Assembly (NCBI GenBank): GCA_045617125.1
Contig: JAZLIA010000034.1
Location: 3,739 to 67,738 of the forward strand
Direction: 5' to 3'
Length of the DNA: 64,000 nucleotides
Source of the DNA: Clostridia bacterium
Lineage (GTDB): Bacteria > Bacillota > Clostridia > Christensenellales > Aristaeellaceae
Shown here: piece by piece, positions 131 to 16,841 of the stretch
Numbering within the stretch: position 1 is the stretch's first letter
How the letters are laid out: every line of letters starts with the position of its first letter
Notes under the pieces: model-generated
The model's database searches: none
Told to the model about the DNA's origin: nothing
Seen by the model: only the letters and a program-made list of their open reading frames with translations
Translations under genes and position numbers: made by a program

Positions 131-222
131 GGAGAAGTCGCCTAGCTTGGTCGAGGGCGCACGACTGGAAATCGTGTAACGGGTAAAACCGTTCGAGAGT
201 TCGAATCTCTCCTTCTCCGCCA
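131..222 (+). tRNA. tRNA-Ser (anticodon GGA), class II tRNA with long variable arm and encoded CCA
   Basis: Cloverleaf folded by hand. Acceptor GGAGAAG/CTTCTCC; anticodon stem CACGA/TCGTG with loop CTGGAAA (anticodon GGA). Variable-arm stem AACGG/CCGTT; T arm GAGAG-TTCGAAT-CTCTC; discriminator G followed by CCA. Confidence 0.9.
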
Positions 223-1924: not shown

Positions 1925-1947
1925 CCTGCGATCCGCCAGGAAAATTC

Positions 1948-2334
1948 TTATCTGGAGAAAATATCATTGGATCCATCCAAGCGAAACGAATCCTTTCCAC
2001 AGATGAGACTTTGCCGGTCCGGAGAACTGAGCATGATGCAGAAAACACTTATGTGACATTTGGCCGCATCCCGCCAATATAACGGAAATGCGGCCTTTCC
2101 TTTCATGTTTTCATTTTGCATTCCACGCCCGAATACGCAAAAACTCAAGCAGATCGGTTTAATCGATCCCGGAAGTGCATAAGCCGTCTCCCAACCGTGC
2201 TTGAGCTTCCGTTTTTCAATGTGCATTTCATTGACATTCAAGTGCTTCGCTATTATACTCGTATTCAGGGTCATGATCTTTTTTACTTCCGTTGACATAT
2301 TGGTTCCGTGGGAACAAGCCATACGGTGTACCAA
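1948..2334 (-). CDS. Hypothetical ORF, possibly a gene remnant
   Basis: Only an open frame of 128 aa. I recognise no motif, the composition is Cys-rich and odd, and it sits at the edge of the AT-rich patch. Confidence 0.2.
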   Translation of the reverse strand: MVHRMACSHGTNMSTEVKKIMTLNTSIIAKHLNVNEMHIEKRKLKHGWETAYALPGSIKPICLSFCVFGRGMQNENMKGKAAFPLYWRDAAKCHISVFCIMLSSPDRQSLICGKDSFRLDGSNDIFSR

Positions 2335-2631
2335 ATACCATCATTTCAGAGCTTCAGTATATTCAGACAAGTAATCCGGAAGGGAAAAGCTGATAAAATC
2401 ATTGATTCGTAAATTGCTCAGGTACCCAATATTCAGAAAAATATTTCTTTATTTAAGTACAAGAATTTTTTTCTTCTATCTCATTCTTCGAAAGCACAAT
2501 GATGAGATTTTTTATTCTTCTCAATGAGCGCAGAGGCGATATTTTATATTCGTTGGCTTTCTTAGATGATCTGAGAAAGAAATACAGATCTAAGAAAAAA
2601 CGTTCCGATCTGTGATAAATTTGTTGGAAGC

Positions 2632-3036
2632 ATGCTTTCTATGGGCATGGAAGCGGGATTTCTGCATACGAATTCTGCTGTTCATGGAGATCTCGGAATG
2701 GTTAAGCCGGGAGATCTGGTGATCATTTTGACGAAAAGCGGTTCAACAGCCGAATCCATTTATCTGACCGATATTTTAAAGAAAAGACCAGGAGTTCAGA
2801 TTTGGCTTTTAAGTGGAAAAAAGCAAAGCCCTTTATCTGACATGCTGGAAAATAAAGTGATTTATTCATTGCGGCACGAGGGTGACCTGTGGAATATTCT
2901 GCCGAATAATTCAACAGCAGTTAATCTTATCATATTGCAAACATTGGCTATGGAACTGGCAAAAAGGTCAGGTGCGACACTGGAAGATTTCAAAGCGAAC
3001 CATCCGGGCGGTGCGATAGGAGAAGCATTGAAATGA
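2632..3036 (+). CDS. SIS-domain protein (KpsF/GutQ-like sugar-phosphate isomerase domain), N-terminally truncated or degenerate; possible pseudogene
   Basis: HGDLGMVKPGDLVIILTKSGSTAES and the C-terminal NHPGG resemble the KpsF/GutQ SIS domain. The in-frame upstream reading is TDLRKNVPICDKFVGS where T-G-x-G-K-S-G is expected. In-frame stops occur at 2572-2574 and 2563-2565. Confidence 0.55.
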   Translation: MLSMGMEAGFLHTNSAVHGDLGMVKPGDLVIILTKSGSTAESIYLTDILKKRPGVQIWLLSGKKQSPLSDMLENKVIYSLRHEGDLWNILPNNSTAVNLIILQTLAMELAKRSGATLEDFKANHPGGAIGEALK

Positions 3037-3407
3037 ATGAATTGATACTTTCCTCTTTGGGGCACACATGGATCCTGGACTTGGATGGAACCATAGTAAA
3101 GCATAACGGATATAAGACGGACGGAATCGATTCTTTCCTCCCCGGCGCCGAGGAGTTTTTAAAGAACATTCCGCTCAATGACATGGTCATTATTCTCACA
3201 TCAAGATCCGAGGAATACCGACATATTACAGAAGACTTTCTAAGAAGCCATGAAATTCGATATAATCATATGATTTTCAATGCACCGTTTGGTGAAAGAA
3301 TACTTATAAACGATACTAAACCAAGCGGCTTAAAAATGAGTATATCCGTTGATGGCTGTCGTGATACGGCATTTATTCCATCAATAACAATTGATAAAAA
3401 TCTATAA
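3033..3407 (+). CDS. Small HAD-superfamily phosphatase-like protein
   Basis: DxDGT motif (WILDLDGTIVKHNG), a motif II-like LTSRS, and an ATGA overlap with the preceding SIS ORF. Confidence 0.6.
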   Translation: MNELILSSLGHTWILDLDGTIVKHNGYKTDGIDSFLPGAEEFLKNIPLNDMVIILTSRSEEYRHITEDFLRSHEIRYNHMIFNAPFGERILINDTKPSGLKMSISVDGCRDTAFIPSITIDKNL

Positions 3408-3582
3408 GGCATTTCCTGTTTGAGAAAACCGTTCGTTCCGCTCCGGCAGAACGCTGAATCCGCTCGGAACTGAGCAGTGTTTACTTCACGGATCTCCAAT
3501 GGGCGGTAAGAAGGGGATGGATCCCGCAGCATAGGCGGTTTTCAGGAAAATGCCTCCCCTTTTTACATCCATATCCTGATCA

Positions 3583-3610
3583 AGTTCACTTAAGTCAGAC
3601 TAAGTGAACT
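3583..3610. promoter_or_regulatory. Perfect inverted repeat (candidate operator) upstream of the 3644 ORF
   Basis: AGTTCACTTA (3583-3592) and TAAGTGAACT (3601-3610) are exact reverse complements separated by 8 bp. The site is 34 nt upstream of the ATG at 3644. Confidence 0.4.
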
Positions 3611-3643
3611 AAACGACAAACAGAAATTTGAGGGCACCATTTT

Positions 3644-3964
3644 ATGAATATAGAAATCAATGAGAATGGGAACTGGTTTCACGGTTCAAATCAGAGATTC
3701 ACAGTGCTTAAAAAGGGAAGCACAATAACACAGTGGCAGGCATTGGCCGAAGCCTTTTCTCATAAACCGAGCAGTTTGTCATATGAAGATAATGGAATCA
3801 TCAAGCACAACGGGACTGAATACGGATATTTATATGTTATTGATGAACCAATCGTGATTGGAACAGATATCTATCCGCATCCAAGAACATCGATGGACAA
3901 GAATGCAGAATTTCTGACTGGGAGAGATTTGAAGGTAAAACTGGTAAGAGAATTGATGGTATAA
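3644..3964 (+). CDS. Hypothetical small protein (106 aa)
   Basis: Open frame with protein-like composition. The N-terminal NWFHGSN motif is not assignable by eye. Confidence 0.4.
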   Translation: MNIEINENGNWFHGSNQRFTVLKKGSTITQWQALAEAFSHKPSSLSYEDNGIIKHNGTEYGYLYVIDEPIVIGTDIYPHPRTSMDKNAEFLTGRDLKVKLVRELMV

Positions 3965-4098
3965 GTCCGACAAATTCCGGTTGTCTGTGCCTTAAAGATC
4001 ATTATTTCGATATAGTTCATCAATTCCTTCAACCTTTACATTGTTAAGAATTGATCATCATCCATTACATCAGAAAACCAAAATGAAGCGGAATCAAA

Positions 4099-5208
4099 TC
4101 AACGTGCCAATACGTCAAAGAAGAATCGATCCTCCCAGCGGCGGTGAAGAGAAAATTCATGGGTCAGGTCTGTGATGTTATAGACTACCGTCCACTGGGT
4201 ATTGCTGATGATGCTTTCCGGATTGGGCGCTGTGGAAGCGGCTTTTGCGGCTTCCCAGGCAATTTCTCCTCCGGCGGCGCTGCCGGCGGCATTAATGACA
4301 GCTTCAACTCTGTCACGGCGTTCCTTGCCCTGACCGTAGATGCCGTTCTTTTGACCGGAGATCACTTTATCCTCATACATGGCAAAATAATTGGTGATGG
4401 TCCTGAGGGGCGTTACGACCATCGGGCGATCTTCCTTCTCACAGTCCCATTCCACAACGCGCCCGTCACCGCTGGCATCTGTGATATAATAATGATAATC
4501 TCTTCCGGAGGTCGCCATATAGTCGTATTGGGCGATCATGTCCACCGCTTCCTGGGTCGTTGCGCATCTGTCCAGCACCAGACGGATCAGAACCGGAGTC
4601 GGCAGGACCGGCTTTCCGTTATTCTGCCGGGTAGGTTCGCTTGACAGGGTGAGCACCGCGATCGCCAGCCCCTTTTCATTCATGCCGTCCAAAGGGATCA
4701 GGGGAGCGACCAGCATGGCAGCCAGGGTCGTTTCGGATTCAAAGGGGTCGTTCATTCCCAGATTGCTCAGCGCGGAGAAGCAGACAGAGCTGTATCCGTT
4801 CCGGGGATGGCAAAAACACATCATCGCGGACGTGTCATATTTGAAATCATAATTCCGGCCCATGTAGATCTTCCCGTCATTCGCTTTCAGGGTAAAGGCA
4901 GTACAGCCAAAATTGGGCGCTTCGATCTTAACAGGAATGCCGGGCAGGGCTTCATTGAGGAGCAGACCGACCATGCCCTGATCATCAAGCTCACCAAATG
5001 GAGTCAGATGATCGATATCGTAATCGTAGAACACTTCCATTGAGTACAGATTCAGCATGTCATCATAATCAGTCAGCTTCTGAATGGAGGCAATCGTCTG
5101 CCGCCTTTCCTCGGAAAGAAGAGGCGCGTTTTCTTCCGCAGCGGCAATGCCGGAACACAGGCAAAGCACGGTGCACATGAGCAGCAGGATAAATCTTATC
5201 ATTTTCAT
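4099..5208 (-). CDS. Secreted Ntn-hydrolase superfamily protein, peptidase C45 / isopenicillin-N N-acyltransferase-like (choloylglycine-hydrolase-related)
   Basis: Signal peptide MKMIRFILLLMCTVLCLCSGIAAAEE. A Gly101-Cys102 junction (APNFG|CTAFTL) is followed by GRNYDF, the pattern of autoproteolytic Cys-nucleophile Ntn enzymes. Confidence 0.65.
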   Translation of the reverse strand: MKMIRFILLLMCTVLCLCSGIAAAEENAPLLSEERRQTIASIQKLTDYDDMLNLYSMEVFYDYDIDHLTPFGELDDQGMVGLLLNEALPGIPVKIEAPNFGCTAFTLKANDGKIYMGRNYDFKYDTSAMMCFCHPRNGYSSVCFSALSNLGMNDPFESETTLAAMLVAPLIPLDGMNEKGLAIAVLTLSSEPTRQNNGKPVLPTPVLIRLVLDRCATTQEAVDMIAQYDYMATSGRDYHYYITDASGDGRVVEWDCEKEDRPMVVTPLRTITNYFAMYEDKVISGQKNGIYGQGKERRDRVEAVINAAGSAAGGEIAWEAAKAASTAPNPESIISNTQWTVVYNITDLTHEFSLHRRWEDRFFFDVLAR

Positions 5209-5287
5209 TTTCCTCTCTTTTCTTCATGTTCATTTGAAACCGCACAGAATTTCCCCTTTGATGTATCACATTTCGCGTTTTCTGCGC

Positions 5288-5301
5288 TTCGTTATAACGA
5301 A
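5288..5301 (-). promoter_or_regulatory. Perfect 14-bp palindrome abutting the -10 element (candidate repressor operator)
   Basis: TTCGTTATAACGAA is its own reverse complement. It lies immediately downstream (minus-strand sense) of the predicted -10 at 5302-5307. Confidence 0.4.
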
Positions 5302-5330
5302 ATTGTAACATAATGTCAGCCCAGATGCAA
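5302..5330 (-). promoter_or_regulatory. SigA-type promoter for the C45/Ntn gene
   Basis: Minus strand reads TTGCAT (5330-5325), a 17-bp spacer, then TACAAT (5307-5302) preceded by TGT. It is about 95 nt upstream of the start at 5208. Confidence 0.5.
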
Positions 5331-5338
5331 GAAAAACC

Positions 5339-5380
5339 GTTACGGTGATTATTTATTCGGTTACGGTGATTATTTATTCG
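5339..5380. repeat. Perfect 21-bp tandem duplication just upstream of the -35 element
   Basis: GTTACGGTGATTATTTATTCG occurs twice back to back, at 5339-5359 and 5360-5380. Confidence 0.85.
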
Positions 5381-5428
5381 GATGCTCAATATGGATATAC
5401 CCGTCGATCATTTTCTTTTCCTACTTCA

Positions 5429-6424
5429 TCAAAGCCCAGCATAAGGCAGCTCCTTGATCAGACATTCCGCAGCAGCATGAATATCCTCATCCTCCGGCAG
5501 TTCTCCATTCCTTGCACAGCACTCAAACTCATCCACGATATTCTCGATCAAAACCATATCAATGAACAGCGGCAGCTGCGCCAGCAATTCATCGGGAATA
5601 TCCGTCTCCGTCCGATACCCGGCAAGGACAGTATCAAAATAATGCCGCATATACGCCATCCGTTCGTCAGTGCCTGAAAGATGCCTGCACCAGCCTTCTC
5701 CGTGCGTCCACAGGTTGGCCAGATCAAACATATACCAGCAGTTCATGCAGTTGTCAAAATCAAATACGGTGATCTTACCGGTCTTCATATTGATGTGATA
5801 GTTCCCATCGCTGAAATCGAAGTGAACCATTCCATATATTTGGGGATCGACAGGCAGAGTATCAAACAGTTCAAGACGACGGAAAATCAAGGCTTTCAAA
5901 GCCTCATAACGGTCAGAAATCAGCCCGTCGATGTAAATCCTGTTGTATTTTTCCCTGTAGCTCATACGGGGATACTTTGGGTCATATTGCTTTGACAGCC
6001 GATGGAGGATGCCAAGCACCCTGCCGCAATTGAAGAAATACTCTTCCAACGGTACGCCTTCCCGATAGCGATATCCATTATCTGAGAGCAGCATTCCTTC
6101 TGCATACTCAAACATGCACAAAAACACAGGTCGTCCCTTCTGTTCGAGCCGTTCCACAAACCTGTGGTTAAAGGACTCGATAACATCGGCTACGGGCGCA
6201 CCGTTTTTTGCAAGGTAATGAACAAAGGCGGTTTCTGCCAGATAATCAGCTTCTGTCCGGTCCGTCAGTGCGGAAACCCGCAGCACCCTTTTCTTTCCAA
6301 CAGCCGAAGTGATGACAAACACGATATTGCGTCCGCCATCATGGCCGGGTACACGGTCGATCTCACAGTTTTCCAGTGAATATAACCGTTCCGCCTGCAT
6401 AAGGATCCATTTCTCATCCATCAA
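5429..6424 (-). CDS. Phosphotransferase enzyme family protein (APH/choline-kinase-like small-molecule kinase)
   Basis: Brenner motif HxDxxxxN (HFDFSDGN) followed by the DFD metal-binding motif (ITVFDFDNC). Confidence 0.7.
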   Translation of the reverse strand: MMDEKWILMQAERLYSLENCEIDRVPGHDGGRNIVFVITSAVGKKRVLRVSALTDRTEADYLAETAFVHYLAKNGAPVADVIESFNHRFVERLEQKGRPVFLCMFEYAEGMLLSDNGYRYREGVPLEEYFFNCGRVLGILHRLSKQYDPKYPRMSYREKYNRIYIDGLISDRYEALKALIFRRLELFDTLPVDPQIYGMVHFDFSDGNYHINMKTGKITVFDFDNCMNCWYMFDLANLWTHGEGWCRHLSGTDERMAYMRHYFDTVLAGYRTETDIPDELLAQLPLFIDMVLIENIVDEFECCARNGELPEDEDIHAAAECLIKELPYAGL

Positions 6425-6636
6425 TATACACCGCCCCGATCATCATACATGCTCCCCGCTGCAGGATCGCATTCATCCGCTCGACAGTTCAGCACCTTTC
6501 CATACCATATTACAGCATAACACGGTTTTCCTGTTTTTATTTGCGGGAATTTGTCCTGACGGCATTCTTTGAGCATTTGTTATAACCCTGCGCGGCATTT
6601 TGACCATATTAACCGGAATGATTCAAAAGATCACTA

Positions 6637-6665
6637 TTGAATCGCACGAAATAAAGTAATACAAT
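6637..6665 (+). promoter_or_regulatory. SigA-type promoter upstream of the GNAT/ACP/ligase cluster
   Basis: TTGAAT at 6637-6642, a 17-bp spacer, TACAAT at 6660-6665. It lies 40 nt upstream of the ATG at 6706. Confidence 0.45.
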
Positions 6666-6705
6666 AATAGGCAGTATAAGAAAGGTGTAAAATACAAGGA
6701 TATCT

Positions 6706-7824
6706 ATGTTGGAAATCAAAGAAGCAACAACAAAAAAAGAAAAAATAGAGTTTCTCGAACTGCCGAACAGGCTCTATAAAAACTGTCCTTGCTTCGTTCC
6801 GCCATTCTATACGGATGAGAAAAAGATTTTTGCCAATAAAAGGGCGAAAGACGGAAGTGCTGAGTCGGTTTTTTTTATTGCGTATGAGAATGGACAGGCG
6901 ATCGGCAGGATCCAGGGGATCTGCCATCACCTGAGCAATGAAAAGCGTTCGGAAAAAAGAGTTCGCTTCACCCGCTTTGACTGCATAAACAGCAAGGAAG
7001 CGGCAGCCGGGCTGTTTGAGCGTCTTGAAGCCTGGGCCGTTTCGCTTGGAATGGATACGGTGTGCGGCCCGCTGGGGTACTCGGATCTGGATAGAGAAGG
7101 ACTGCTGATCGAAGGCTTTGATCAAATGTCCACCTATGAAGAACAGTATAATTTTGAATATTACTCAGAGCTTCTGGAAGCAAACGGATACAGGAAGGAA
7201 AAGGACTGGCTGGAATACCGCCTGTCCATTCCCGTGAAAGAAGACGAAGAACTTGAACGCATGGCGGATTTTCTTCTGCGCAGGTACGGTTTGAAATACG
7301 TAAGCGCAGGAAACTTCAAAAAAATGTGCAAACTATACTATAACGAATTTCACGATGTTTTGGAACGCGGCTACGCAAACCTTTACGGAACGGCTCCTTT
7401 AACGGAGGAAATGAAGAAAGAGCTTCTGAAAACGCTGGTGGCACTCCTCGATAAGCGGTTTGTAAGGCTCGTAACGGATAAAGACGGAGAGCTGGTGTAT
7501 TTTGCAATTGCTCTTCCTTCATTAAGCAGGGCGCTTCTTCATTCAGGAGGACACATGAGTATCCCGGTGCTTTTTAAGCTGTTAAAGGCAAAAATGCATC
7601 CGGAAGTAATCGACCTGGGATTGGTCTCCGTTTCGGAAAAATACAAGGGAAAAGGCGTTGGCAGCCTTCTTGTCCGTGATATCATAGGACTGATGAGATC
7701 AGAAAACGTTCCCTATGTGGAAACCAATCTGTGTCTTGAGGATAACTACGCGATCCGTAATCTGTGGCATCAGTTTGACAGTGTTCAGCACAAGAGAAGA
7801 CGCGCATATGTAAAGCAGCTATAA
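6706..7824 (+). CDS. Large (372 aa) GNAT-superfamily acyltransferase, probably a tandem GNAT fold
   Basis: The N-terminus MLEIKEATTKKEKIEFLELPNRLYKNCPCFVPPFYTDEKKIF is typical of an uncharacterised roughly 370-aa GNAT family. There is a C-terminal motif-A-like YKGKGVGSLL and an AAGGA RBS. Confidence 0.6.
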   Translation: MLEIKEATTKKEKIEFLELPNRLYKNCPCFVPPFYTDEKKIFANKRAKDGSAESVFFIAYENGQAIGRIQGICHHLSNEKRSEKRVRFTRFDCINSKEAAAGLFERLEAWAVSLGMDTVCGPLGYSDLDREGLLIEGFDQMSTYEEQYNFEYYSELLEANGYRKEKDWLEYRLSIPVKEDEELERMADFLLRRYGLKYVSAGNFKKMCKLYYNEFHDVLERGYANLYGTAPLTEEMKKELLKTLVALLDKRFVRLVTDKDGELVYFAIALPSLSRALLHSGGHMSIPVLFKLLKAKMHPEVIDLGLVSVSEKYKGKGVGSLLVRDIIGLMRSENVPYVETNLCLEDNYAIRNLWHQFDSVQHKRRRAYVKQL

Positions 7825-7837
7825 CGGAGGAAGAATC

Positions 7838-8092
7838 ATGCTGGAAACAATCATATCCATTCTTGCAGATCGGTTCAAGGTTGACAAAGAAACGATCACA
7901 AGAGAAACCGAACTCATAAAAGATCTGGGAGCAGACTCCCTTGAACTGGTCCGCCTTTTGATGATCCTGGAGAATGACTACGGAGTATATATCGACGATG
8001 ACCGGGTCCAGGGCATCCGTACAGTCGGAGACGTTGCAGATATTGCCGAATCTGCAGCCGGAAAGGATCATCATGAAAATGAAAGGGGATGA
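7838..8092 (+). CDS. Acyl carrier protein (phosphopantetheine attachment DSL motif)
   Basis: LGADSLELVRLLMILENDYG in an 84-aa protein; GGAGGAAG RBS upstream. Confidence 0.8.
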   Translation: MLETIISILADRFKVDKETITRETELIKDLGADSLELVRLLMILENDYGVYIDDDRVQGIRTVGDVADIAESAAGKDHHENERG

Positions 8093-9581
8093 ACAGAATT
8101 TCTTCCGGTTCGACTTTCTGAAAAAGCCCGAAAAATGGAAAAGCTTTGGTACTGTACCGGAATTTCTTTCCGATATCAGCGGTTACGGCAATATACCGGC
8201 AATCTGCTTTGGTGAAAGCCTGTCCGTAACCTATTCAGAACTTTGCAGCGATATCTGCGGGATGTGCGGACACTTTGAAAAGATCGGGTTACTCAGATCA
8301 GGCAACGTAGGTTTATGTGCTGAAAACGGATATTATTTTATCGTCGTTTCCCTGGCACTGATGGCTTACGGATGCTGTGCCGTGCTTATACCGCCATCAT
8401 TTAAGGGAAATATACCGGAAACACTTATCAGCAAGTATGACCTTTCGCTGATTTTCGTTAAGGAAGAGGATATACAAAACGCTGAAACCGTTTTTGCCGG
8501 TGACCCCTTACTGCATCGCGGCACGGCTTCAAAAGCTGCCATAAAGGGAGATATTGACCCGGAAAGCCCCGCGTGTATATTCTTTACCGGAGGAACGACG
8601 GGAAAATCCAAGGGAGCCGTTCTTTCACACCGCGCATTGCTTCGCGGAACCGCAAACTGGCAGTACAATATGTTCTCGCTTGAGCATGAGGAGAGCTTTC
8701 TGGCGCTTCCTCTCACTCACGTTTTTGGCTACATCAGAAACTTCCTTGTCAACCTGCTTCTGGGAAATACAGTTCATTTCAGCACCGGGATGCGGAATTT
8801 CTTCAAGGATATGATGCGTATCCATCCGAATGAAACCGTGATGGTGCCAAAGATGGCGGATCTTCTTCTGGATACTATAGAAAGAAACGGAACAGGCGTC
8901 ACCGGCGGAAGGCTGACCACGGTCGTTTCAGGAGCCGCGCACGTACCGGAATTCCTGATCCGCGGTCTTGACCGGTATGGGATCCATGTATATCCGGGAT
9001 ACGGAATGACAGAAACAGCAAATCTGACCAGCGGCAATCCTGTCCCTTTGCAGAAAACGGGATCAGTCGGGCCGCTCTATCCGTATCAGGAGGCTCAGAT
9101 CATGGACGGCGAGCTTCTTCTTAAGGGACAAAATCTTTTCAGCGGATACTATGCAGATCCTGAGCTTAACCGTGAAGCATTCAGCGGAGGCTGGTTCAAA
9201 ACAGGCGACCTTGCCCATTTTGATTCAGACGGTTTTCTATATATCACCGGACGCGTCAAATCGCTGATCGTGCTCCCGACAGGAGAGAAAATATCTCCCG
9301 ATGAAATGGAGATCCGGGTAAGTGAGATCGACGCTGTGCGCGACGCGCTTTTATATCTGAAGGAACAGGAAGGTGTGGGCGGAAAACTGTGTCTTGAAGT
9401 CACACTGCGGCCCGAAATTGTGGAAAAGCTTAACACAGACGGAAAAAATGCAGAAAAATACGTGACCGAAATGATACGCGAGAAGATTTCCGGAATGCCG
9501 GACTGCTTTAACCCGGCTTCGATCGTGATCCGGGACCGGGACTTTGACAGGACCCCCTCCATGAAGATCAAACGTCCGTAA
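8073..9581 (+). CDS. Adenylate-forming enzyme (AMP-dependent synthetase/ligase; acyl- or aminoacyl-carrier-protein ligase candidate)
   Basis: FFTGGTTGKSKGAVLSH (AMP-binding P-loop), GYGMTET, WFKTGDLAHFDSDGFLYITGRVKSLIV and a C-terminal PSMKIKR. ATG at 8073 follows GGAAAGG, so the start overlaps the ACP gene by 20 nt. The ORF-track start at 7974 was rejected. Confidence 0.8.
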   Translation: MKMKGDEQNFFRFDFLKKPEKWKSFGTVPEFLSDISGYGNIPAICFGESLSVTYSELCSDICGMCGHFEKIGLLRSGNVGLCAENGYYFIVVSLALMAYGCCAVLIPPSFKGNIPETLISKYDLSLIFVKEEDIQNAETVFAGDPLLHRGTASKAAIKGDIDPESPACIFFTGGTTGKSKGAVLSHRALLRGTANWQYNMFSLEHEESFLALPLTHVFGYIRNFLVNLLLGNTVHFSTGMRNFFKDMMRIHPNETVMVPKMADLLLDTIERNGTGVTGGRLTTVVSGAAHVPEFLIRGLDRYGIHVYPGYGMTETANLTSGNPVPLQKTGSVGPLYPYQEAQIMDGELLLKGQNLFSGYYADPELNREAFSGGWFKTGDLAHFDSDGFLYITGRVKSLIVLPTGEKISPDEMEIRVSEIDAVRDALLYLKEQEGVGGKLCLEVTLRPEIVEKLNTDGKNAEKYVTEMIREKISGMPDCFNPASIVIRDRDFDRTPSMKIKRP

Positions 9582-9634
9582 AGAGCATGAAGGAAAACTC
9601 ATGAAAAAAGACAGCGCGGGATAAAGGAGCGTCA

Positions 9635-10393
9635 ATGGAAAAAGAAGTGATAAAGGTCGGTGGGCTGGTAAAGTGTTTCCAGCTTGAAAACATGACCCAG
9701 ACCATACTTGATCACATCAATTGTGTGATTTACAGAGGGGATTTTACCGTGATCATGGGTGCCAGCGGAAGCGGCAAATCCACACTCCTTTATGCTCTTT
9801 CCGGAATGGATACGGTAACGGAAGGGCAGGTCATTTTTAACGGAACGGATATTACGAAATTATCCTCCGATGAAATGGCCATGTTCAGAAGAGATCATTG
9901 CGGATTTATTTTTCAGCAAAGATGCCTTATCGGTTCCATGAACGTACTGAACAACGTTCTTGCAGCCGGATTGCTTAAAAAGGCGGATAAAGAAGAGCTT
10001 GTAAAAAGGGCAAAGGAGCTTCTCTGTGCAGTCGGCATAGAAGAACACACCTGGAAAAAATATCCCACCCAGATCTCCGGCGGTAAAGGTGCGAGGGTCG
10101 GGATCGTCCGCGCTCTGATCAATGAGCCGGAGGTGTTGTTTGCCGATGAACCCACAGGGTCTCTTAATTCAAAATCGGGCGAGGATGTGCTGAACCTCTT
10201 TACGGAATTCAATAATAAGGGGCAAAGCATCGTCATGGTAACGCACGATATCAAATCAGCCTTAAGAGGAAACCGTATTCTGTATCTGAAGGACGGAAAA
10301 ATCGTGAATGAATTGTACCTTGGTTCGTATAAAACCGATGACGAATACAGAAAAGAGAAACTGGATCAGTTCCTCAATAAGATGAAATGGTGA
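9635..10393 (+). CDS. ABC transporter ATP-binding protein, MacB/LolD-type, with an atypical signature motif
   Basis: Walker A GASGSGKSTLL, Walker B LFADEPTGSLNS, H-loop MVTHD. The signature reads QISGGKGARVGIVRAL rather than LSGGQQQRVAIARAL. Confidence 0.8.
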   Translation: MEKEVIKVGGLVKCFQLENMTQTILDHINCVIYRGDFTVIMGASGSGKSTLLYALSGMDTVTEGQVIFNGTDITKLSSDEMAMFRRDHCGFIFQQRCLIGSMNVLNNVLAAGLLKKADKEELVKRAKELLCAVGIEEHTWKKYPTQISGGKGARVGIVRALINEPEVLFADEPTGSLNSKSGEDVLNLFTEFNNKGQSIVMVTHDIKSALRGNRILYLKDGKIVNELYLGSYKTDDEYRKEKLDQFLNKMKW

Positions 10394-12741
10394 ATATGCT
10401 GAACAAAACTTTTCTTGTTATCCGGCCTAATATCAGAAAAACATACAGACAGCTGATCGCTGTGTTTTTTCTGGTGCTCATTGCGTCGCTTTTACTGAAT
10501 ATGGTCCTGGTTCTGAAACTGGATTACAATCAGAATTTTGAAAGAGACGCAGCCAGACTGAACGCCAATCATTTCAGGATCGCATATACAGACGTGTATC
10601 TCCGTGACTGCATGGATATGCTTGCTGATTGTCTTAATGAAGATGCAAGAATCAAAGGTTTTGAAATTGACCGCGGATTTATGGGAGAAGGAGACATCGA
10701 ATCTCCAAACGGCTCGATCAGCTCGCTGATCGTACTGGAAAAGTATTCGGATGCGGAAAAGGAACGGATCGACCGATTCGAGATCCTTGAGGAAGATATC
10801 CATATCACAAACGGAGCTTATGTCAGTTATTTTTTCAAAACTCTTGGAATGAAAACAGGAGATAACTGTTCCGTTTCGATAGGAAATAATTCCTTCGAAT
10901 TTCCGATCCGGGGCTTTTACAATAATCCCATGCTCGGAACGGTCAACTGCAGCGGAATCGCCTGTCTGTTAACCGATAAACTGTATGACGAAATTCTAAA
11001 AGATAAGCAGGAATCCTATCTTATCAAAGTACAATGCCGGGACAGGGAGAAGATCACAGAGGTCTTCAACGATACTGTAAATGCATTTGGCAGCCTGAGC
11101 CCCACCGGATATGTATGCCGCACAGCATTTGCAGACGAGGTGGGAGCATCCCGATATACCAATGCCAATCTTTTCAGGATCATACTTACATTTACCTCGG
11201 TCACAATGATCCTGATCACGCTTGCAGTCATAGCGATCGTCATGTCCAACTACGTAAAGGAAAATATCAGGGTTTTTGGAACCTATAAGGCCATCGGCTA
11301 CACATCACTTTCCCTTATTGTTCCCATGCTTTTTGAAGTGGCTCTTTTGTGTCTTGCTGCGAGCCTTATCGGAATCGGTTCATCCTATGCCGTGCTTCCG
11401 CTCATCAATCATGCGCTGGAAAGCCAGTCAGGGGTTCCGTATACGGTCCGCTTCCTTGTTATTCCGTGCATCGTGACCCTCGTGATCTGCGAACTCACGT
11501 CGCAAATAAGCACCTATCTTTCTGTGCGCAAGATCAGAAAGATTTCGACCGTTCATGCGATAAAGGATCCCAGGGAGAGCGCGAAAAAAAAGCCTGACAT
11601 ATTAGCGCTTGAAAAAACGAACCTTCCTGTAAATGCCGCTCTCGGCTTTGACACAGCATTCAAATCCGCATCCCGAAGCATTCTTCTGGTTCTTACATCC
11701 ATGGGGATCACTTTCCTGCTTGGCATATCCCTGTTCATTTATCAAAATCTGATCGTAGATAACACGGATCTTGTAAAGGCGATCTGCGGAGAGATCTCGA
11801 ATTATATCGTAAGTGTTGACACGGAGGATGAAGACAAATTGATCGGCTTCCTTCAGGATGATGACAGGGTCGATCTTTTTTACCTGTATCAGATGGAAGA
11901 CCAGGTCCCGGATGTTTATCCTGTCATCTGCTCCATCGGAGTTGATAAAGATGGATTTGTTTCAAACCTTGACTATCTGATCGTGAAAGGCAGATTCCCG
12001 AATGCCGATGATGAAATAACGTTAAATCAATTATACGCAACCAGAAACGGCCTTCGTCTTCATGACGAGATCATCTTCACCCATGACGGAAAAAGGGATT
12101 CCTACAAGATCGTCGGCTTCAACCAGGGCGCGTCAAGAAACGGAGTGGAAGGATATTTCACAAGAGAAGGCCTTGAAAAAATAAGCAGCAATGAAGGTGT
12201 CACATATTACGTATTCCTTCGCAGCATCGACGAAGAAAGCAGCTTCCGGTCTGATATCATGGAGAAGATCCCGATCCAGTATATGATAAACAGCCGTTTG
12301 AACGTTTCCAGCATAGTCGATATGTATATGCTTATCCTGATCGTTCTGGCGATCGTTCTGTGCATCATCAGCGCATTGATAGCAGGCTTTGTAACCTATA
12401 TCCTCCTCTCGCTCCTGCTCAGCAGTAAAAGACGCGAGCACGGCATATTGAAGGCGATCGGATATACAACAGGAAACATCGTGCTTCAGGCAGAGCTCAG
12501 CATCCTTCCGTTTACGGCTTTGGGAGCAGCGGCGGGACTGGTTCTATCCAGAAAGAACATAGGGATCCTTGTAAGCCGGGCACTCAATTCGATCGGGATC
12601 TATGACTTTGGAAACCCACTGAAGGTTTCCTATCTTATCATCCTCTGGCTGGTTTTGGTGATCCTGATTGCATGCTTCACAGCGTTTTTATGCCGCCCGA
12701 TCTCAAAGATCAGTACACGTGAGCTTTTTAACATGGAATAA
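10387..12741 (+). CDS. FtsX/MacB-family ABC transporter permease (784 aa, two FtsX modules)
   Basis: An N-terminal TM segment followed by a large extracytoplasmic region, in two repeats of that pattern. FtsX-like segments are FGTYKAIGYTSLSL and EHGILKAIGYTTGNIV. The start overlaps the ATPase stop. Confidence 0.75.
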   Translation: MVNMLNKTFLVIRPNIRKTYRQLIAVFFLVLIASLLLNMVLVLKLDYNQNFERDAARLNANHFRIAYTDVYLRDCMDMLADCLNEDARIKGFEIDRGFMGEGDIESPNGSISSLIVLEKYSDAEKERIDRFEILEEDIHITNGAYVSYFFKTLGMKTGDNCSVSIGNNSFEFPIRGFYNNPMLGTVNCSGIACLLTDKLYDEILKDKQESYLIKVQCRDREKITEVFNDTVNAFGSLSPTGYVCRTAFADEVGASRYTNANLFRIILTFTSVTMILITLAVIAIVMSNYVKENIRVFGTYKAIGYTSLSLIVPMLFEVALLCLAASLIGIGSSYAVLPLINHALESQSGVPYTVRFLVIPCIVTLVICELTSQISTYLSVRKIRKISTVHAIKDPRESAKKKPDILALEKTNLPVNAALGFDTAFKSASRSILLVLTSMGITFLLGISLFIYQNLIVDNTDLVKAICGEISNYIVSVDTEDEDKLIGFLQDDDRVDLFYLYQMEDQVPDVYPVICSIGVDKDGFVSNLDYLIVKGRFPNADDEITLNQLYATRNGLRLHDEIIFTHDGKRDSYKIVGFNQGASRNGVEGYFTREGLEKISSNEGVTYYVFLRSIDEESSFRSDIMEKIPIQYMINSRLNVSSIVDMYMLILIVLAIVLCIISALIAGFVTYILLSLLLSSKRREHGILKAIGYTTGNIVLQAELSILPFTALGAAAGLVLSRKNIGILVSRALNSIGIYDFGNPLKVSYLIILWLVLVILIACFTAFLCRPISKISTRELFNME

Positions 12742-12756
12742 CAAAAGGAGCGCAAA

Positions 12757-13851
12757 ATGATCGAACTCAGACACTTAAAAAAGCAATATGATATGTCAAC
12801 ACCGCTGATCGATGTCAATGCCACCATTCATGAAGGTGACATTATTGCCGTGATCGGTCCATCTGGAACAGGAAAATCAACACTGCTCCGCTGCATCAAC
12901 CTCCTTGAAGCCCCAACATCGGGGCAGATCTTTGTGGATGGCGAGGAGATCACAAGCCCGAAATGTGATCTGAGGAGCATCCGCCATAAGATCGGAATGG
13001 TGTTTCAGTCCTTTAACCTGTACGAGCATCTGACCGTTGTTGAAAACTGTATGCTGGCCCAGACGGTTCTGCTTAAACGAACGAAAAAAGAAGCCTATGA
13101 CAAGTCCATGGAGCTGCTGCTTTCGGTCGGTATGGAGGCTGCCGCCCTGCAGTATCCGTCAAATCTTTCCGGTGGGCAGAAGCAGCGGGCGGCGATCGCA
13201 AGAACACTGTGTACTGATCCTGAAATCATTCTGTTTGACGAACCGACTTCCGCTTTGGACCCGCTTTCCGTAAGGGAAGTAGAAAAGGTCATTGAGGATC
13301 TTGCCCGGCAGGGGCGCACAATGATGATCGTCACGCACAGCATGGATTTCGCACGCAGAATATCAAACCGTGTATTCTACCTGGATCAGGGCGGAATATA
13401 TGAGGAAGGAACACCGCAGGAAATTTTCGAGGCGCCCAAAGGGATCCTGACGCAAAGATTCATCCATCAGCTTCATACCCTCAAAATCATTTTGAGTGAA
13501 GAAAACCGCGATATTCCAAATGAATTTGCAAAGATCTTTTCTTTCTGCAGGGAATGCGGAATAGACAAAGATCGGACATTTAATGCCTGCAATATTTTTG
13601 AAGAAGGGGTGAATATCCTCTGCCGGTACGCTTACGGTAAAGAAAGAACCGTATGCATCACGATCAACTATAATATGTCATTGGATGTGCTTCAGCTTTC
13701 ATTTGCACCGTATTCCCTCACAACAGATCCTGGCATAAAACAGACGATACTCGAATCCATAGAGTACAAGCTGCTGCTGTACTATGCTAAAGAACACCGC
13801 ACAGAACCGTCTGAGAATGGAGCCGGCGTTCAGTACATCTTTAGTATATAA
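12757..13851 (+). CDS. Polar amino-acid ABC transporter ATP-binding protein (GlnQ-like) with an extra C-terminal domain of about 120 aa
   Basis: GPSGTGKSTLLRCINLLE, LSGGQKQRAAIARTL, ILFDEPTSALDP, IVTHSM. The extension after residue ~245 is unassigned. Confidence 0.8.
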   Translation: MIELRHLKKQYDMSTPLIDVNATIHEGDIIAVIGPSGTGKSTLLRCINLLEAPTSGQIFVDGEEITSPKCDLRSIRHKIGMVFQSFNLYEHLTVVENCMLAQTVLLKRTKKEAYDKSMELLLSVGMEAAALQYPSNLSGGQKQRAAIARTLCTDPEIILFDEPTSALDPLSVREVEKVIEDLARQGRTMMIVTHSMDFARRISNRVFYLDQGGIYEEGTPQEIFEAPKGILTQRFIHQLHTLKIILSEENRDIPNEFAKIFSFCRECGIDKDRTFNACNIFEEGVNILCRYAYGKERTVCITINYNMSLDVLQLSFAPYSLTTDPGIKQTILESIEYKLLLYYAKEHRTEPSENGAGVQYIFSI

Positions 13852-13854
13852 GAA

Positions 13855-15396
13855 ATGGGGATGAATAAGGTGAAAAGATTCATTTCGGTTTTGATCCCGG
13901 TGTGTTTTCTGTGTCTTGTGTTTATCCTTCTTCCAAGAAGCGAAAACAACAGAGCACAGCTTTCTTCCTTTGATGATCTGAACGGCCTGACAGTCGGTGT
14001 GCAGAACGGTGTAAACTATGATCTGATCCTGCAGGAGAAATATCCTGAGGCTAAACCCGTATTATTCAGCGATTTTGAAACAATGAATCAGTCGCTGCTT
14101 CAGGGAAAGATCTCCGCTTTACTGACAGAATCCGTCAGCTTTCCGACAGATAAAATCGAGCATCCGTCCTTTATCGCTCTGGACGGTTCACTTGAACAGG
14201 TCGGAAACCATATGATCTTAAAAAATGACATCCAGGGACGGGCGCTGGCAGCCCAGCTTAACGAATATATCGCTGCCTACGCTGAAAACGGCACGCGCGA
14301 AAAAATGTACTCATACTGGTTTACCAATTATGAACGCGGAAAGGTCTCTGTAGATAAATCCGGCATCACAGGTGAAAACGGGGTGTTGACGTTTACTGCG
14401 GAAGCAGGTTATGAACCCTCCTGTTTTGCCGGAGGCGATGGCGAACTGATCGGCTTTGATGTGGATTTCATTTACCATTTCTGTCGGGAATATGGCTATG
14501 AACCTAATATCATCCCTCTTGAATATGATGCCATGAGCGCAGCCGTTGTCAGTGGAAGATGCGATGCAGCAATCGGCATCGTAATGGATGAGGAACGTGA
14601 AGAAGAAGTATACTTTACGGATGCATATTATCATTACGATGTTATCGCCGTGTATAACGGCGAGGAGGTTAAAAACGGCAGCTTCTTTGAGAATCTGATA
14701 AACAGCTTCAACAAGACCTTTATCCGCGAGAACCGCTGGAAAATGTTTCTGGAAGGTTTTGAAACGACCCTTGTCATAGCGGTTCTTGCCGTTATATTCG
14801 GAAGCGGGCTGGGCCTTTTGCTGTATCTATGGTGTTTACACGGGAAAAAGGCAGAACGGAAGATTACAAACGGAATGTGCTGGCTGATGAACAGCACCCC
14901 TACGATTTTGCTGCTGATGGTTCTGTATTATATTGTATTCAGCCAGTATACATTAAGCAATGTCTGCACTGCGGTGATCGGATTTTCGCTGCAGTTTGGC
15001 TGCGGTTTCTATGAGCGGATCGTCTCCGGCGTAAATGCTGTAGGGATCGGGCAGGAGGAAGCAGCAATATCACAGGGCTTCTCCAGGAACCAGACGTTCT
15101 TCCGTATTCAGCTCCCGCAGGCAAAAAAATTTTTTATAGGTGCCTATGAGGGGGACGTGATCTCGCTGATCCTGGAAACATCCGTTGTCGGTTATATCAC
15201 CGTAATGGATCTTACGAAAATGAGCGACCTTGTACGGGCCAGAACCTATGAGCCTTTCTTCCCGCTCATCGCCACGACCCTGATCTATTTCCTGCTGATT
15301 TGGCTTGTCACTTTTCTGGTCAGACAATTGTCCTCTCTTTGGGATAAAGCGGGCAGAATGAGCAAAGCTTCTCTGGAAAGATTAAGGAACCGCTGA
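13855..15396 (+). CDS. Fused amino-acid ABC substrate-binding domain plus permease (GlnP/GlnH-like)
   Basis: An N-terminal TM/signal segment, SBP_bac_3-like segments (LIGFDVDFIYHFCREYGYEP, SGRCDAAIG, VYFTDAYY), then a permease with an EAA-like region (EEAAISQGFSRNQTFFRIQLPQA). Confidence 0.75.
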   Translation: MGMNKVKRFISVLIPVCFLCLVFILLPRSENNRAQLSSFDDLNGLTVGVQNGVNYDLILQEKYPEAKPVLFSDFETMNQSLLQGKISALLTESVSFPTDKIEHPSFIALDGSLEQVGNHMILKNDIQGRALAAQLNEYIAAYAENGTREKMYSYWFTNYERGKVSVDKSGITGENGVLTFTAEAGYEPSCFAGGDGELIGFDVDFIYHFCREYGYEPNIIPLEYDAMSAAVVSGRCDAAIGIVMDEEREEEVYFTDAYYHYDVIAVYNGEEVKNGSFFENLINSFNKTFIRENRWKMFLEGFETTLVIAVLAVIFGSGLGLLLYLWCLHGKKAERKITNGMCWLMNSTPTILLLMVLYYIVFSQYTLSNVCTAVIGFSLQFGCGFYERIVSGVNAVGIGQEEAAISQGFSRNQTFFRIQLPQAKKFFIGAYEGDVISLILETSVVGYITVMDLTKMSDLVRARTYEPFFPLIATTLIYFLLIWLVTFLVRQLSSLWDKAGRMSKASLERLRNR

Positions 15397-15457
15397 TCTA
15401 TTCGGCGCCAGCGCTGAAGATGGCTTTTCTGTAAGCGAAATCATGCAAAAATAAACA

Positions 15458-15522
15458 GTTTTCCAAAGAAATCACGCACAGGCGTTTCCCATGCGTTCAT
15501 CTTTGGAAAACCGCTCTTTTCG
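15458..15522 (+). terminator. Hairpin downstream of the amino-acid ABC genes (weak terminator candidate)
   Basis: GTTTTCCAAAG (15458-15468) pairs with CTTTGGAAAAC (15501-15511) across a 32-nt loop that has an inner stem. It is followed by CCGCTCTTTTCG. Confidence 0.3.
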
Positions 15523-15561
15523 ATGCAGCGACTTCCCTGACGATCCTATCTATCTGATCTC

Positions 15562-15724
15562 ATACTAAACGAGTTTTAAAACTGAACAGATGCGCCGCAT
15601 ATTTTTCTCTCTGGCTAAGCTGAATGGAGGGAGGCGTACGTGAAACGTACGTTGATCGGAATGAAGCAACGCCAGAGGGGAAAAGCTGCAAGCAAATGTT
15701 GGGTTTTTAAAATGAGTTTAGTAT
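15562..15724 (+). repeat. Roughly 163-nt hairpin-forming intergenic repeat, copy 1 (MITE-like or structured RNA element)
   Basis: Near-identical to 59395-59558. Imperfect 19-nt terminal inverted repeats (TACTAAACGAGTTTTAAAA / TTTTAAAATGAGTTTAGTA). Internal stem TTTTTCTCTCTGGC/GCCAGAGGGGAAAAG and apical CGTACG-TGAAA-CGTACG. Confidence 0.85.
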
Positions 15725-15965
15725 AAGCCAGCCCTTCTTTTCAATTCATTCCTGGTTCCGGTTTTCACGGGCGGAGCACTGACGCGAGCAGCCGGTCGAT
15801 CCCGGCCTCCATCCGGAAAAAAGTTTCTGATCGGGTCCGGTTCTCATATTTCCCGGCAGCATGGTTTTCCATCACAAGTTGATAACGTTCAATTGCTTTC
15901 ATTATACAACATTGGCAACCCCGTCGATCTCAGGCGGGAAAGACTCGTTGATCAGGCATATTTTT

Positions 15966-16841
15966 TCATCGGTGATCACTTTCCGGAAAAAGCCGCCCAT
16001 TCCGCTCATAAAGCGGAATAAAAACAGGATGCTCTTTCAGATGCTCATTTGGAGTATGCAGCGTAAGATAAAGCTGTCCCTCTCTGGTGCCAAACACCAT
16101 GCCATGGCCTCCGTCCTTCCTGAACAGAGGCTCCAGCTGCTCCCAGGGTCCAAAGATCTCCCCGCTTTTCGATAATGCCAGGCCTTCCGTGTATCCTTCC
16201 TCGGAAAAGCTGGCCCAAAGGCACAAAAGGGTACCGTCTCCGCATAAATGCAGGAAAGGTCCATCTGTCACACAACCATTCACCCCGCTGGAATGGTGCA
16301 TCGTTTTGCACCAGGGGGCCTGAGAAGCGGTGAACATCAGCTCCGGTTCTCCCTGAGGCTGTTTCAGATCCATCGTCAGGGGCAGGGCCAGGATCTGCCC
16401 GTCCCCCGCCTGGACCCATTCATGACAAAACACCATATAGGGCTTTCCCTCCCGGGATACATGGAAGGTGCCGTCCAGACACTCCCAATCCCTCGGAGTT
16501 ACGGGCCCGTCCGACCAGGGAATAAAGGGCCCTCTGGGCGTTTCAGCTCTCAGGATCTGCGTGCCGCGGCAGCGTTCCGGGCTTTTGAAGCTGGCAAACA
16601 TATAGTAAGCCCCCTGCCACACATGCACCTCCGGCGCCCAGTAATTCCGGTCCGCCCAGAAGGTGCCGTCATTATGGAAGCACTCTGCTGGGCCTTCCCA
16701 CTCTGAAAGATCCCGGCTGAAATACACATCAAACCCGTCTGCCGGGCCCCAGCAATCCGCTCCCCGGGTGCCGTAAAGATAATATCCTTCTTCCGTGACC
16801 AGCACAAAGGGATCCCTGATGTTGATCATTTCGGTTTTCAT
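15966..16841 (-). CDS. Glycoside hydrolase family 43 (arabinanase/arabinofuranosidase/xylosidase-type five-bladed propeller)
   Basis: MKTEMINIRDPFVLVTEEGYYLYGT, NYWAPEVHVWQGAYYMFASF. ATG at 16841 is preceded by AAGGAG. No signal peptide. Confidence 0.75.
   Translation of the reverse strand: MKTEMINIRDPFVLVTEEGYYLYGTRGADCWGPADGFDVYFSRDLSEWEGPAECFHNDGTFWADRNYWAPEVHVWQGAYYMFASFKSPERCRGTQILRAETPRGPFIPWSDGPVTPRDWECLDGTFHVSREGKPYMVFCHEWVQAGDGQILALPLTMDLKQPQGEPELMFTASQAPWCKTMHHSSGVNGCVTDGPFLHLCGDGTLLCLWASFSEEGYTEGLALSKSGEIFGPWEQLEPLFRKDGGHGMVFGTREGQLYLTLHTPNEHLKEHPVFIPLYERNGRLFPESDHR

Follow-up and report, generated by a model that had tools for sequence, protein, structure and literature searches.

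A conserved GNAT–acyl carrier protein–ligase triad in a Clostridia genome and its proposed role in acyl-ACP-dependent lipid acylation

We analysed a 64,000-nucleotide stretch of a Clostridia bacterium genome (contig JAZLIA010000034.1, positions 3,739 to 67,738), referred to here as the window and numbered from its first letter. A tandem-GNAT protein, an acyl carrier protein (ACP) and an ANL-superfamily ligase are encoded in it at the head of a run of seven genes. A first-pass annotation made from the sequence alone had proposed that all seven form one undescribed system, in which an acyl or aminoacyl group is loaded on the carrier and transferred by the GNAT, with an exporter and an amino-acid importer. 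Its seven open reading frames (ORFs) are present in the ORF listing with the positions it gave, all on the plus strand, and its domain calls for all genes are borne out by Pfam and NCBIfam. The promoter candidate and the genes are as follows.

6637..6665, plus strand: sigma-70-like promoter candidate (TTGAAT, 17 nt, TACAAT), a consensus match only
6706..7824, plus strand: tandem-GNAT acyltransferase, proposed to be acyl-ACP-dependent, 372 aa (Pfam, AlphaFold2 model, Foldseek)
7838..8092, plus strand: dedicated acyl carrier protein, 84 aa, with a GADSL serine motif (PP-binding, 2.6e-11)
8073..9581, plus strand: ANL-superfamily ligase, 502 aa, a putative fatty acid:ACP ligase (acyl-ACP synthetase-like; AMP-binding, 4.6e-47)
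9635..10393, plus strand: MacB/LolD-type ABC ATPase, 252 aa (ABC_tran)
10387..12741, plus strand: internally duplicated FtsX permease, 784 aa (two FtsX stretches, Pfam)
12757..13851, plus strand: GlnQ-like ABC ATPase with a C-terminal extension of ~125 aa (GlnQ model, 261 bits against a cut-off of 379)
13855..15396, plus strand: fused binding-domain/permease protein of a polar amino-acid importer (SBP_bac_3 and BPD_transp_1)

The GNAT stop (7824) and the ACP start (7838) are 13 nt apart, and the ACP end (8092) overlaps the ligase ATG (8073) by 20 nt if the ligase begins at 8073, the methionine indicated by the homologue alignment (the mechanical ORF opens at 7974). Further downstream the end of the ABC ATPase gene (10393) overlaps the FtsX start (10387) by 7 nt, and gaps of 15 and 3 nt separate the FtsX stop (12741) from the GlnQ-like start (12757) and the GlnQ-like stop (13851) from the start of the fused protein (13855). 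The junction lengths reported earlier are correct; not in that list was the 53 nt gap between the ligase stop (9581) and the ABC start (9635). The block also proved internally free of convincing plus-strand terminators, as had been proposed, with a modest hairpin following at 15474-15496.

The seven genes are not one conserved system; the conserved core is the GNAT–ACP–ligase triad. By nucleotide comparison, the closest metagenomic relatives, loci L005 and L006 (GNAT 89% identical), share a syntenic segment corresponding to 6625-12745 that comprises the GNAT, ACP, ligase, ABC and FtsX genes. Synteny breaks over 12745-15789 and resumes at 15789 with GH43 and DUF4340 genes. The GlnQ-like ATPase and fused permease (12757-15396) are absent from all related loci, including the 83-89% identical relatives, and L005 and L006 hold a glycosyltransferase at the importer site instead. 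No importer homologue was found by tblastn in ~170 related loci, and no meaningful repeats flank the insertion (12746-15788). The importer pair is a local, strain-specific insertion, not part of the conserved system, and the seven-gene proposal falls with it. The importer may or may not feed an acceptor to the cassette.

The other triad relatives, which are likewise Clostridia-type metagenome-assembled genomes (MAGs), carry the three genes in different surroundings. In L172 (83% GNAT identity) genes for a CDP-alcohol phosphatidyltransferase and for an LPG_synthase_TM protein come after the triad. They are adjoined by a fusion of helix-turn-helix, nucleotidyltransferase and choline/ethanolamine-kinase parts (LicC/LicA-like), after which comes a duplicated-FtsX/ABC pair different from that of the window. 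The segment with the phosphatidyltransferase, LPG_synthase_TM and fusion genes (L172 4511-8213) looks like a head-group pathway placed next to the triad. L173 and L174 (78%) have the triad alone with unrelated genes on both sides, L008 (55%) has it divergent from a GAF-domain ABC ATPase, and in L009 (49%) a duplicated FtsX permease gene lies 14 nt upstream of it. The ACP gene is kept between the GNAT and ligase genes in L005, L006, L008, L009, L172 and L173.

Wider gene context was counted in two sets of 80 best-scoring loci, which are not phylogenetically independent and for which neighbour counts are tblastn-based. The first comprises the best 80 (L012-L091, the mainstream loci) from a scan of species-representative genomes that returned at least 571 stretches encoding GNAT relatives. 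The second comprises 80 metagenomic loci (L092-L171) anchored on ligase homologues of 35-45% identity. In 10 of the 80 ligase-anchored loci a distant GNAT clade (29-32% identity) directly adjoins the ligase homologue, the GNAT-family gene being full-length and mostly divergent from the ligase. L161, the one of these ten annotated in detail, has the order GNAT (minus), ligase (plus), ACP (plus), with the PP-binding gene after the ligase. The first-pass annotation had suggested looking for co-occurrence of GNAT, ACP, ligase and FtsX across genomes; for the GNAT, ACP and ligase it is present, in two independent gene orders. In L161 the GNAT gene is followed on the same strand (7196-9818, minus) by genes for a hemerythrin-LuxR-type regulator and an AhpC/TSA-type thiol peroxidase, a gene set that hints at an oxidative-stress link in that clade.

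The tandem-GNAT fold proposed for the 6706-7824 product is upheld by an AlphaFold2 model built with 55 homologues (pLDDT 85.8, pTM 0.83), for which the top Foldseek matches are all tandem GNATs. The best of these, 5kf1, 2wpw, 7q3a and MshD, have query template-modelling (TM) scores (TMq) of 0.53-0.61 and E values down to 5e-14, and the proteins behind the best folds are the glucosamine N-acetyltransferase of C. acetobutylicum (5kf1), CBG (2wpw), MAB_4324, MshD and Eis. The only Pfam families matched at E <= 0.01 are PF00583 and PF13508, with the Acetyltransf_1 match confined to residues 298-355; at that threshold there is no match to OlsB/PF13444, FemAB (PF02388) or DUF2156 (PF09924), the families first suggested for it. 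A search of PDB sequences with the protein and with the family profile gave no chain below E = 0.1, and no curated model or solved structure was found for the family. The C-terminal domain has a canonical pantetheine/pyrophosphate loop, YKGKGVG (residues 313-319), after the strand at residues 302-309. The N-terminal domain is without such a loop, yet it carries most of the residues invariant across the family, which are G67, R68, R87, G121, P122, G132, G137, Y148, Y152, Y153 and G161. The idea of a large uncharacterised family of ~370 aa also holds: the family comprises 3831 clusters at 50% identity, 309 of them below 1e-30, is uniform in length and is labelled in the sources just 'GNAT family N-acetyltransferase' or 'hypothetical'.

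The carrier scores 72.1 bits against a cut-off of 71 for the acyl carrier protein model NF002148, and all 15 of its NCBIfam matches are acyl carrier protein models, mostly of the fatty acid synthase type, none being a DltC model. For the ligase the best NCBIfam matches are MenE, long-chain fatty-acid (FadD-type) ligases and the C-terminal half of Aas, all below their cut-offs. The match to the Aas model PRK06814 (1.2e-31) reaches 109.5 bits over positions 779-1077 against a cut-off of 1349, and the match to V. harveyi AasS (8hsy, E = 2.5e-16) is no better than those to CoA ligases. The ligase has the core motifs of the ANL superfamily, and among 18 aligned family members PLTHVFG, GYGMTE and the C-terminal lysine K498 are invariant. 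By the motif assignment established in the ANL and NRPS literature, PLTHVFG occupies the site of the FDxS (A4) motif of nonribosomal peptide synthetase (NRPS) A domains and DltA, in which the Asp binds the alpha-amino group. On the question raised by the first-pass annotation, whether the ligase is of the fatty-acyl or the amino-acid type, the His in place of that Asp supports a ligase of the carboxylic-acid rather than the amino-acid type.

These results bear directly on the Dlt-like or FemX/MprF-like pathway proposed earlier as one of two readings, in which the ligase would load an amino acid on the carrier for transfer by the GNAT. The outline of ligase, small carrier and transferase fits Dlt, an amino-acid importer lies downstream in the window, and the aminoacyl-tRNA-dependent tandem GNATs FemX and L-PGS do appear in the Foldseek list. 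They appear at ranks 28-29, however, with TMq values of 0.41 (FemX, 1xe4) and 0.38 (L-PGS, 4v36), against 0.60 for the N-acetyltransferase tandem GNATs, and N-myristoyltransferase likewise reaches only ~0.4. Moreover, the ligase has His at the amino-binding position, the amino-acid adenylation model scores 110 bits on it against 168 for acyl-ligase models, and the carrier is AcpP-like rather than DltC-like. Neither DltB (MBOAT) nor DltD is encoded among the seven genes or in related loci, the FemAB and DUF2156 families are not matched, and the importer is not conserved. Every testable feature counts against this pathway, and we regard it as highly improbable.

The GNAT family has a characteristic genomic home. 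Relatives were found in gut and rumen Clostridia, in Bacilli/Mollicutes-like lineages, in Treponema and Bacteroidales MAGs and in Eubacterium ruminantium ATCC 17233, and their typical gene order is fakA-fakB(DegV)-GNAT-plsX-acpP (for example, L071 6360-12382 and L065 7298-13672). DegV/FakB is encoded directly upstream of the GNAT in 59 of 77 evaluable loci and PlsX directly downstream in 47 of 74; both adjoin it in 40 of 71. FakA is encoded further upstream in 34/61 and an ACP within 3 kb downstream in 41/72. Gaps in these operons are typically a few nt or overlaps, often < 20 nt. We found no paper in the literature on this GNAT family or on a GNAT gene inside a fakAB-plsX operon. A gene for an MGDG-synthase-like glycosyltransferase often precedes the set.

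The ligase family has a home of its own, in which the ACP is a regular companion. The ACP gene directly follows the ligase gene in 57 of 71 evaluable loci, so that the carrier is not the unrelated neighbour it might have been. Directly upstream of the ligase is a PlsC-type acyltransferase gene (47/60 loci), and an MFS_2 transporter gene is present in 25 of the 80 loci. Genes for a phosphopantetheinyl transferase (PPTase), DegV and FakA are common nearby. One recurrent set (for example, L108, L106 and L144) comprises MFS_2, PlsC-type acyltransferase, ligase, ACP, PPTase, alpha/beta hydrolase, DegV and FakA. Overall, the gene set of this family is reminiscent of an Aas/LplT system that is split into separate genes and equipped with a carrier and a PPTase of its own.

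The two families meet at the acyltransferase position. A PlsC-type gene (PF01553) is present in none of the ten ligase-anchored loci that bear the GNAT but in 48 of the 50 others (Fisher p = 9e-10, for loci that are not phylogenetically independent), and no PlsC-type acyltransferase is encoded in the window or in any triad locus. This mutual exclusion suggests that one acyltransferase has been exchanged for the other as partner of the ligase-ACP pair. The case for use of acyl-ACP by the tandem GNAT draws its greatest strength from the occurrence of that pair with either acyltransferase. The earlier suggestion of a fatty acid loaded on the ACP, the donor half of its other reading, is supported, as it agrees with the ligase motif and with the gene neighbourhoods of the GNAT and ligase families. 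The acceptor half of that reading, an imported amino acid, found no support.

It is also possible to read the pairing of GNAT and ligase as regulatory, the GNAT acting as a protein lysine acyltransferase or acetyltransferase through which the ligase, or other enzymes of lipid metabolism, would be inactivated. AcuA and Pat acetylate the A10 lysine of acyl-CoA synthetases in this manner. The divergent GNAT and ligase genes of the ten loci recall acuA|acsA, a likeness drawn from general knowledge, and the ligase retains the invariant lysine K498. The context of that lysine is SMKIKR, however, not the usual SGK, and the best folds for the GNAT are small-molecule enzymes. In the triad the ACP gene stands between the GNAT and ligase genes and overlaps the latter, and the ligase is encoded in 0 of the 80 mainstream GNAT loci. 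We consider a regulator of this kind quite unlikely.

The exporter assigned to the system by the first-pass annotation is less firmly attached to it than the ACP and ligase. The ABC/FtsX pair of the window (9635-12741) travels with the triad in its closest relatives only, the ATPase being 90% and the permease 83% identical in L005 and L006, and it cannot be regarded as a fixed part of the system, as each occurs without the other. LolD, DarD and MacB are the best NCBIfam matches of the ATPase, all below cut-offs. The permease has no Pfam match to PF12704, the MacB periplasmic core, and belongs to a small family of 55 homologues. Triad-free relatives of the ATPase are 59-69% identical (L175-L177). 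Three other triad lineages (L008, L009 and L172) have a different duplicated-FtsX system, the ATPase of which bears a GAF or other N-terminal extension, and which is related to a second ABC system of the window:

34241-37885, minus strand: GAF-domain ATPase (401 aa) and duplicated FtsX permease (812 aa)

The ATPases of L008 and L172 are 48% and 41% identical, respectively, to that of this second system, and the L009 permease is 26% identical to its permease over 744 residues (E = 3e-62). The system lies in a second low-GC patch (0.47). Duplicated-FtsX ABC systems are found beside the triad in four of five distinct arrangements and in none of 160 non-triad loci, which hold no FtsX gene. It is thus plausible that the triad and FtsX-type transporters are functionally linked. 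The ABC/FtsX pair of the window, although a separable module, is probably a partner to the cassette.

On balance, we favour a reading of the cassette in which the ligase charges the ACP with a free fatty acid, the tandem GNAT acylates an amine-bearing acceptor and the ABC/FtsX pair handles the product or its substrate. The fatty-acid substrate, the loading of the ACP, the use of acyl-ACP as donor by the GNAT and the role of the transporter are inferred from motifs and gene neighbourhoods. The ligase (8073-9581) would adenylate a free, probably exogenous, fatty acid and attach it as an acyl group to the ACP (7838-8092), at the phosphopantetheine arm. The GNAT (6706-7824) would then take the acyl-pantetheine in its C-terminal GNAT domain and acylate an acceptor that is held by the highly conserved N-terminal domain and the linker (residues 121-153), the target being an amine or, with lower probability, a hydroxyl. 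The tandem GNAT would in this way stand in for a PlsC-type acyltransferase or a condensation domain. The acceptor is probably a membrane lipid or lipid precursor, and for the product a lipid or lipo-amine associated with the membrane is most likely, not a secondary metabolite free to diffuse. The putatively MacB-type ABC/FtsX pair, encoded just downstream of the ligase, probably translocates or extracts either the acylated product or the lipid that serves as its substrate.

The locus could instead be a lipopeptide or lipo-RiPP cluster (RiPP, ribosomally synthesized and post-translationally modified peptide), with the GNAT transferring the fatty acyl group from the ACP to a peptide, ribosomal or other, as in the goadvionin and selidamide types, and the ABC/FtsX pair exporting it. 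From general knowledge, GNAT, ACP, acyl ligase and MacB-type exporter are the parts list of such clusters, and the ATPase does resemble bacteriocin-export ATPases (172.8 bits to TIGR03608). Within 6625-12745, however, there is no ORF for a precursor peptide or another maturase, the intergenic gaps there being just 13 and 53 nt; the flanks vary by lineage, and the main home of the GNAT family is a phospholipid operon. A cluster of this kind is very unlikely.

Several observations weigh against our reading of the cassette as a fatty-acid transfer system. The closest folds of the GNAT are acetyl-CoA-dependent small-molecule N-acetyltransferases, not known users of acyl-ACP, and its pantetheine loop fits acyl-CoA or acetyl-CoA equally, so the protein could be an ordinary acetyltransferase. 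Because all curated NCBIfam scores of the ligase are below cut-off, its substrate class is assigned from a single motif and from gene neighbourhoods. The triad GNATs form one clade, sister to the mainstream clade, in a neighbour-joining tree (no support values), and the triad clade is rare, with ~10 clusters at 90% identity. As for the transporter, the triad of L173 has no ABC system within 10 kb, and the ABC/FtsX family occurs alone in L175 and L176 and within a response regulator-histidine kinase-ABC-FtsX module of Bce-like layout in L177.

Alternatively, the GNAT might be a plain acetyl-CoA-dependent N-acetyltransferase that acts on a cell-wall sugar or some small molecule, mechanistically unconnected to the ACP and ligase and adjacent to them by operon hitch-hiking. 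In keeping with this, 5kf1, MshD and Eis are acetyl-CoA enzymes, Acetyltransf_1 is the sole named Pfam match and the loop is of the canonical CoA type; in 14 of 71 mainstream loci, moreover, neither DegV nor PlsX adjoins the GNAT. Hitch-hiking does not sit well, however, with the presence of fatty-acid activation genes in three independent arrangements (fakB-GNAT-plsX, GNAT-ACP-ligase and GNAT|ligase-ACP), with genes that overlap or sit a few nt apart, or with the mutual exclusion of GNAT and PlsC-type genes beside ligase-ACP. We regard a plain acetyltransferase as unlikely and retain the acyl-ACP-dependent reading.

Of the genes around the block, a secreted hydrolase and an APH-type kinase, both encoded upstream on the minus strand, had been suggested to share the chemistry of the cassette. 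The hydrolase is encoded as follows.

4099-5208, minus strand: secreted Ntn-hydrolase (C45/CBAH; C45/AAT and choloylglycine-hydrolase models)

It has a signal-peptide-like N-terminus and scores 81.1 bits against a C45 subfamily cut-off of 85. The upstream flank with both genes is not shared by L005 and L006, tblastn found no homologue of either near ~170 related loci, and we rejected the two as cassette partners. Between the LicA-like kinase of L172 and the APH kinase of the window there is no detectable similarity.

The promoter at 6637-6665 was described as good in the first-pass annotation. The site is there on the plus strand with a 9/12 consensus match, which alone is weak evidence; promoter-like matches are frequent in the region, with 38 observed where shuffled sequence gave 19.3 +/- 4.5. 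L005 and L006, which are 88% identical, preserve both hexamers of the site and its spacing without change, and their synteny with the window starts at 6625, 12 nt upstream of it. Neither a riboswitch nor a T-box was detected in 3000-16500 with Rfam at gathering or permissive thresholds. GC content is 0.38-0.50 over 1800-16200, apart from one 600-nt bin of 0.56, against 0.52-0.61 past 16.2 kb. A tRNA gene lies at the start of the window (131-219), and no integrase was seen in 1-3.4 kb, where CstA (362-1924) and a SIS-domain fragment (2632-3036) are encoded.

In the GlnQ-like ATPase of the importer the C-terminal extension (residues ~240-364) has no Pfam or NCBIfam match. The extracytoplasmic part of the fused protein has the halves of a family-3 solute-binding protein in reverse order, the C-terminal one being matched by residues ~34-157 and the N-terminal one by residues ~176-289. 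The SBD1-SBD2 tandem of GlnP (6h30, residues 100-323) is the only structure with which this part is colinear. The reversed order could have arisen by circular permutation or be what is left of a tandem.

Three kinds of characterised pathway invite comparison with the cassette. The OaaA/OaaACP/OaaC proteins of Coprococcus eutactus form a fatty-acid-amide NRPS-like pathway of gut Clostridia (PMC13310621 and its reference 28). By description they are similarly three free-standing proteins: the ACP is charged with a fatty acid by the adenylating enzyme, and the remaining protein passes the acyl group to an acceptor; the hosts are again of gut Clostridia type, and adenylating enzyme and ACP are encoded together. 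In contrast, the window has a tandem GNAT, no condensation domain (PF00668) was found by Pfam in the ten proteins scanned across 3644-15396, and the main context of the GNAT family is the fakAB-plsX operon, not a biosynthetic gene cluster.

Aas/LplT of E. coli, which re-acylates lysophospholipids, combines an acyl-ACP synthetase that activates free fatty acid with an acyltransferase acting on a membrane lipid, and a transporter is encoded alongside; the cassette, with its putative synthetase, would share this layout. The wider ligase family, ordered MFS (major facilitator superfamily) transporter, PlsC-type acyltransferase, ligase and ACP, is comparable to the split form of Aas, CT775/CT776 of Chlamydia trachomatis (PMC5693948). 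Unlike these, the window has neither PlsC-type nor MFS genes, their positions being occupied by the tandem GNAT and the ABC/FtsX pair; the cassette also owns its ACP, and its ligase matches the Aas model far below cut-off.

The N-acyl amino acid synthases, such as FeeM with the ACP FeeL, and the aminolipid N-acyltransferases OlsB/GlsB (PF13444) are GNAT-superfamily enzymes that transfer an acyl-ACP chain to form an amide with an amino acid (PMC11631085). The window likewise encodes a GNAT-superfamily enzyme with a dedicated ACP nearby. FeeM, OlsB and GlsB are single-domain proteins, however, whereas the window protein is a tandem GNAT of 372 aa that does not match their family, and FeeM-like structures are absent from the top 50 fold matches of its model. 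Lacking the defining condensation, PF13444 and PlsC-type domains, the cassette is a member of none of these groups. The tandem-GNAT N-acetyltransferases (5kf1, MshD, 2wpw, MAB_4324 and Eis) share with the window protein the two-GNAT fold and a cofactor loop in the C-terminal domain. They differ in sequence (11-15% identity), and in the window family the N-terminal domain is the most conserved and the context is fatty-acid activation.

The uptake of exogenous fatty acids by FakAB/PlsX is well studied in Gram-positive bacteria and is a target of antibiotic research. Host-active N-acyl lipids of gut bacteria have been traced to two other enzyme classes, PF13444 synthases and stand-alone C domains. 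Against this background we tentatively entertain a broader proposal, which we think somewhat less probable than its opposite, that the ~372-aa tandem-GNAT family is an unrecognised acyl-ACP-dependent membrane-lipid acyltransferase. In many Bacillota of the gut and rumen, as well as in Treponema and Bacteroidales MAGs, it would be a standard component of a fakA-fakB-X-plsX-acpP operon, making an undescribed lipid class or providing an undescribed step of exogenous fatty-acid incorporation. The cassette of the window would then be a paralogue with a private ACP, fatty-acid ligase and ABC/FtsX lipid transporter. As the cassette is small (three genes, 2.9 kb), it is directly testable by heterologous expression. 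If the family does consist of lipid acyltransferases, many gut and rumen anaerobes would make a lipid, or perform a remodelling step, that is missing from pathway maps, and a third widespread enzyme class would widen the search space for host-active N-acyl lipids.

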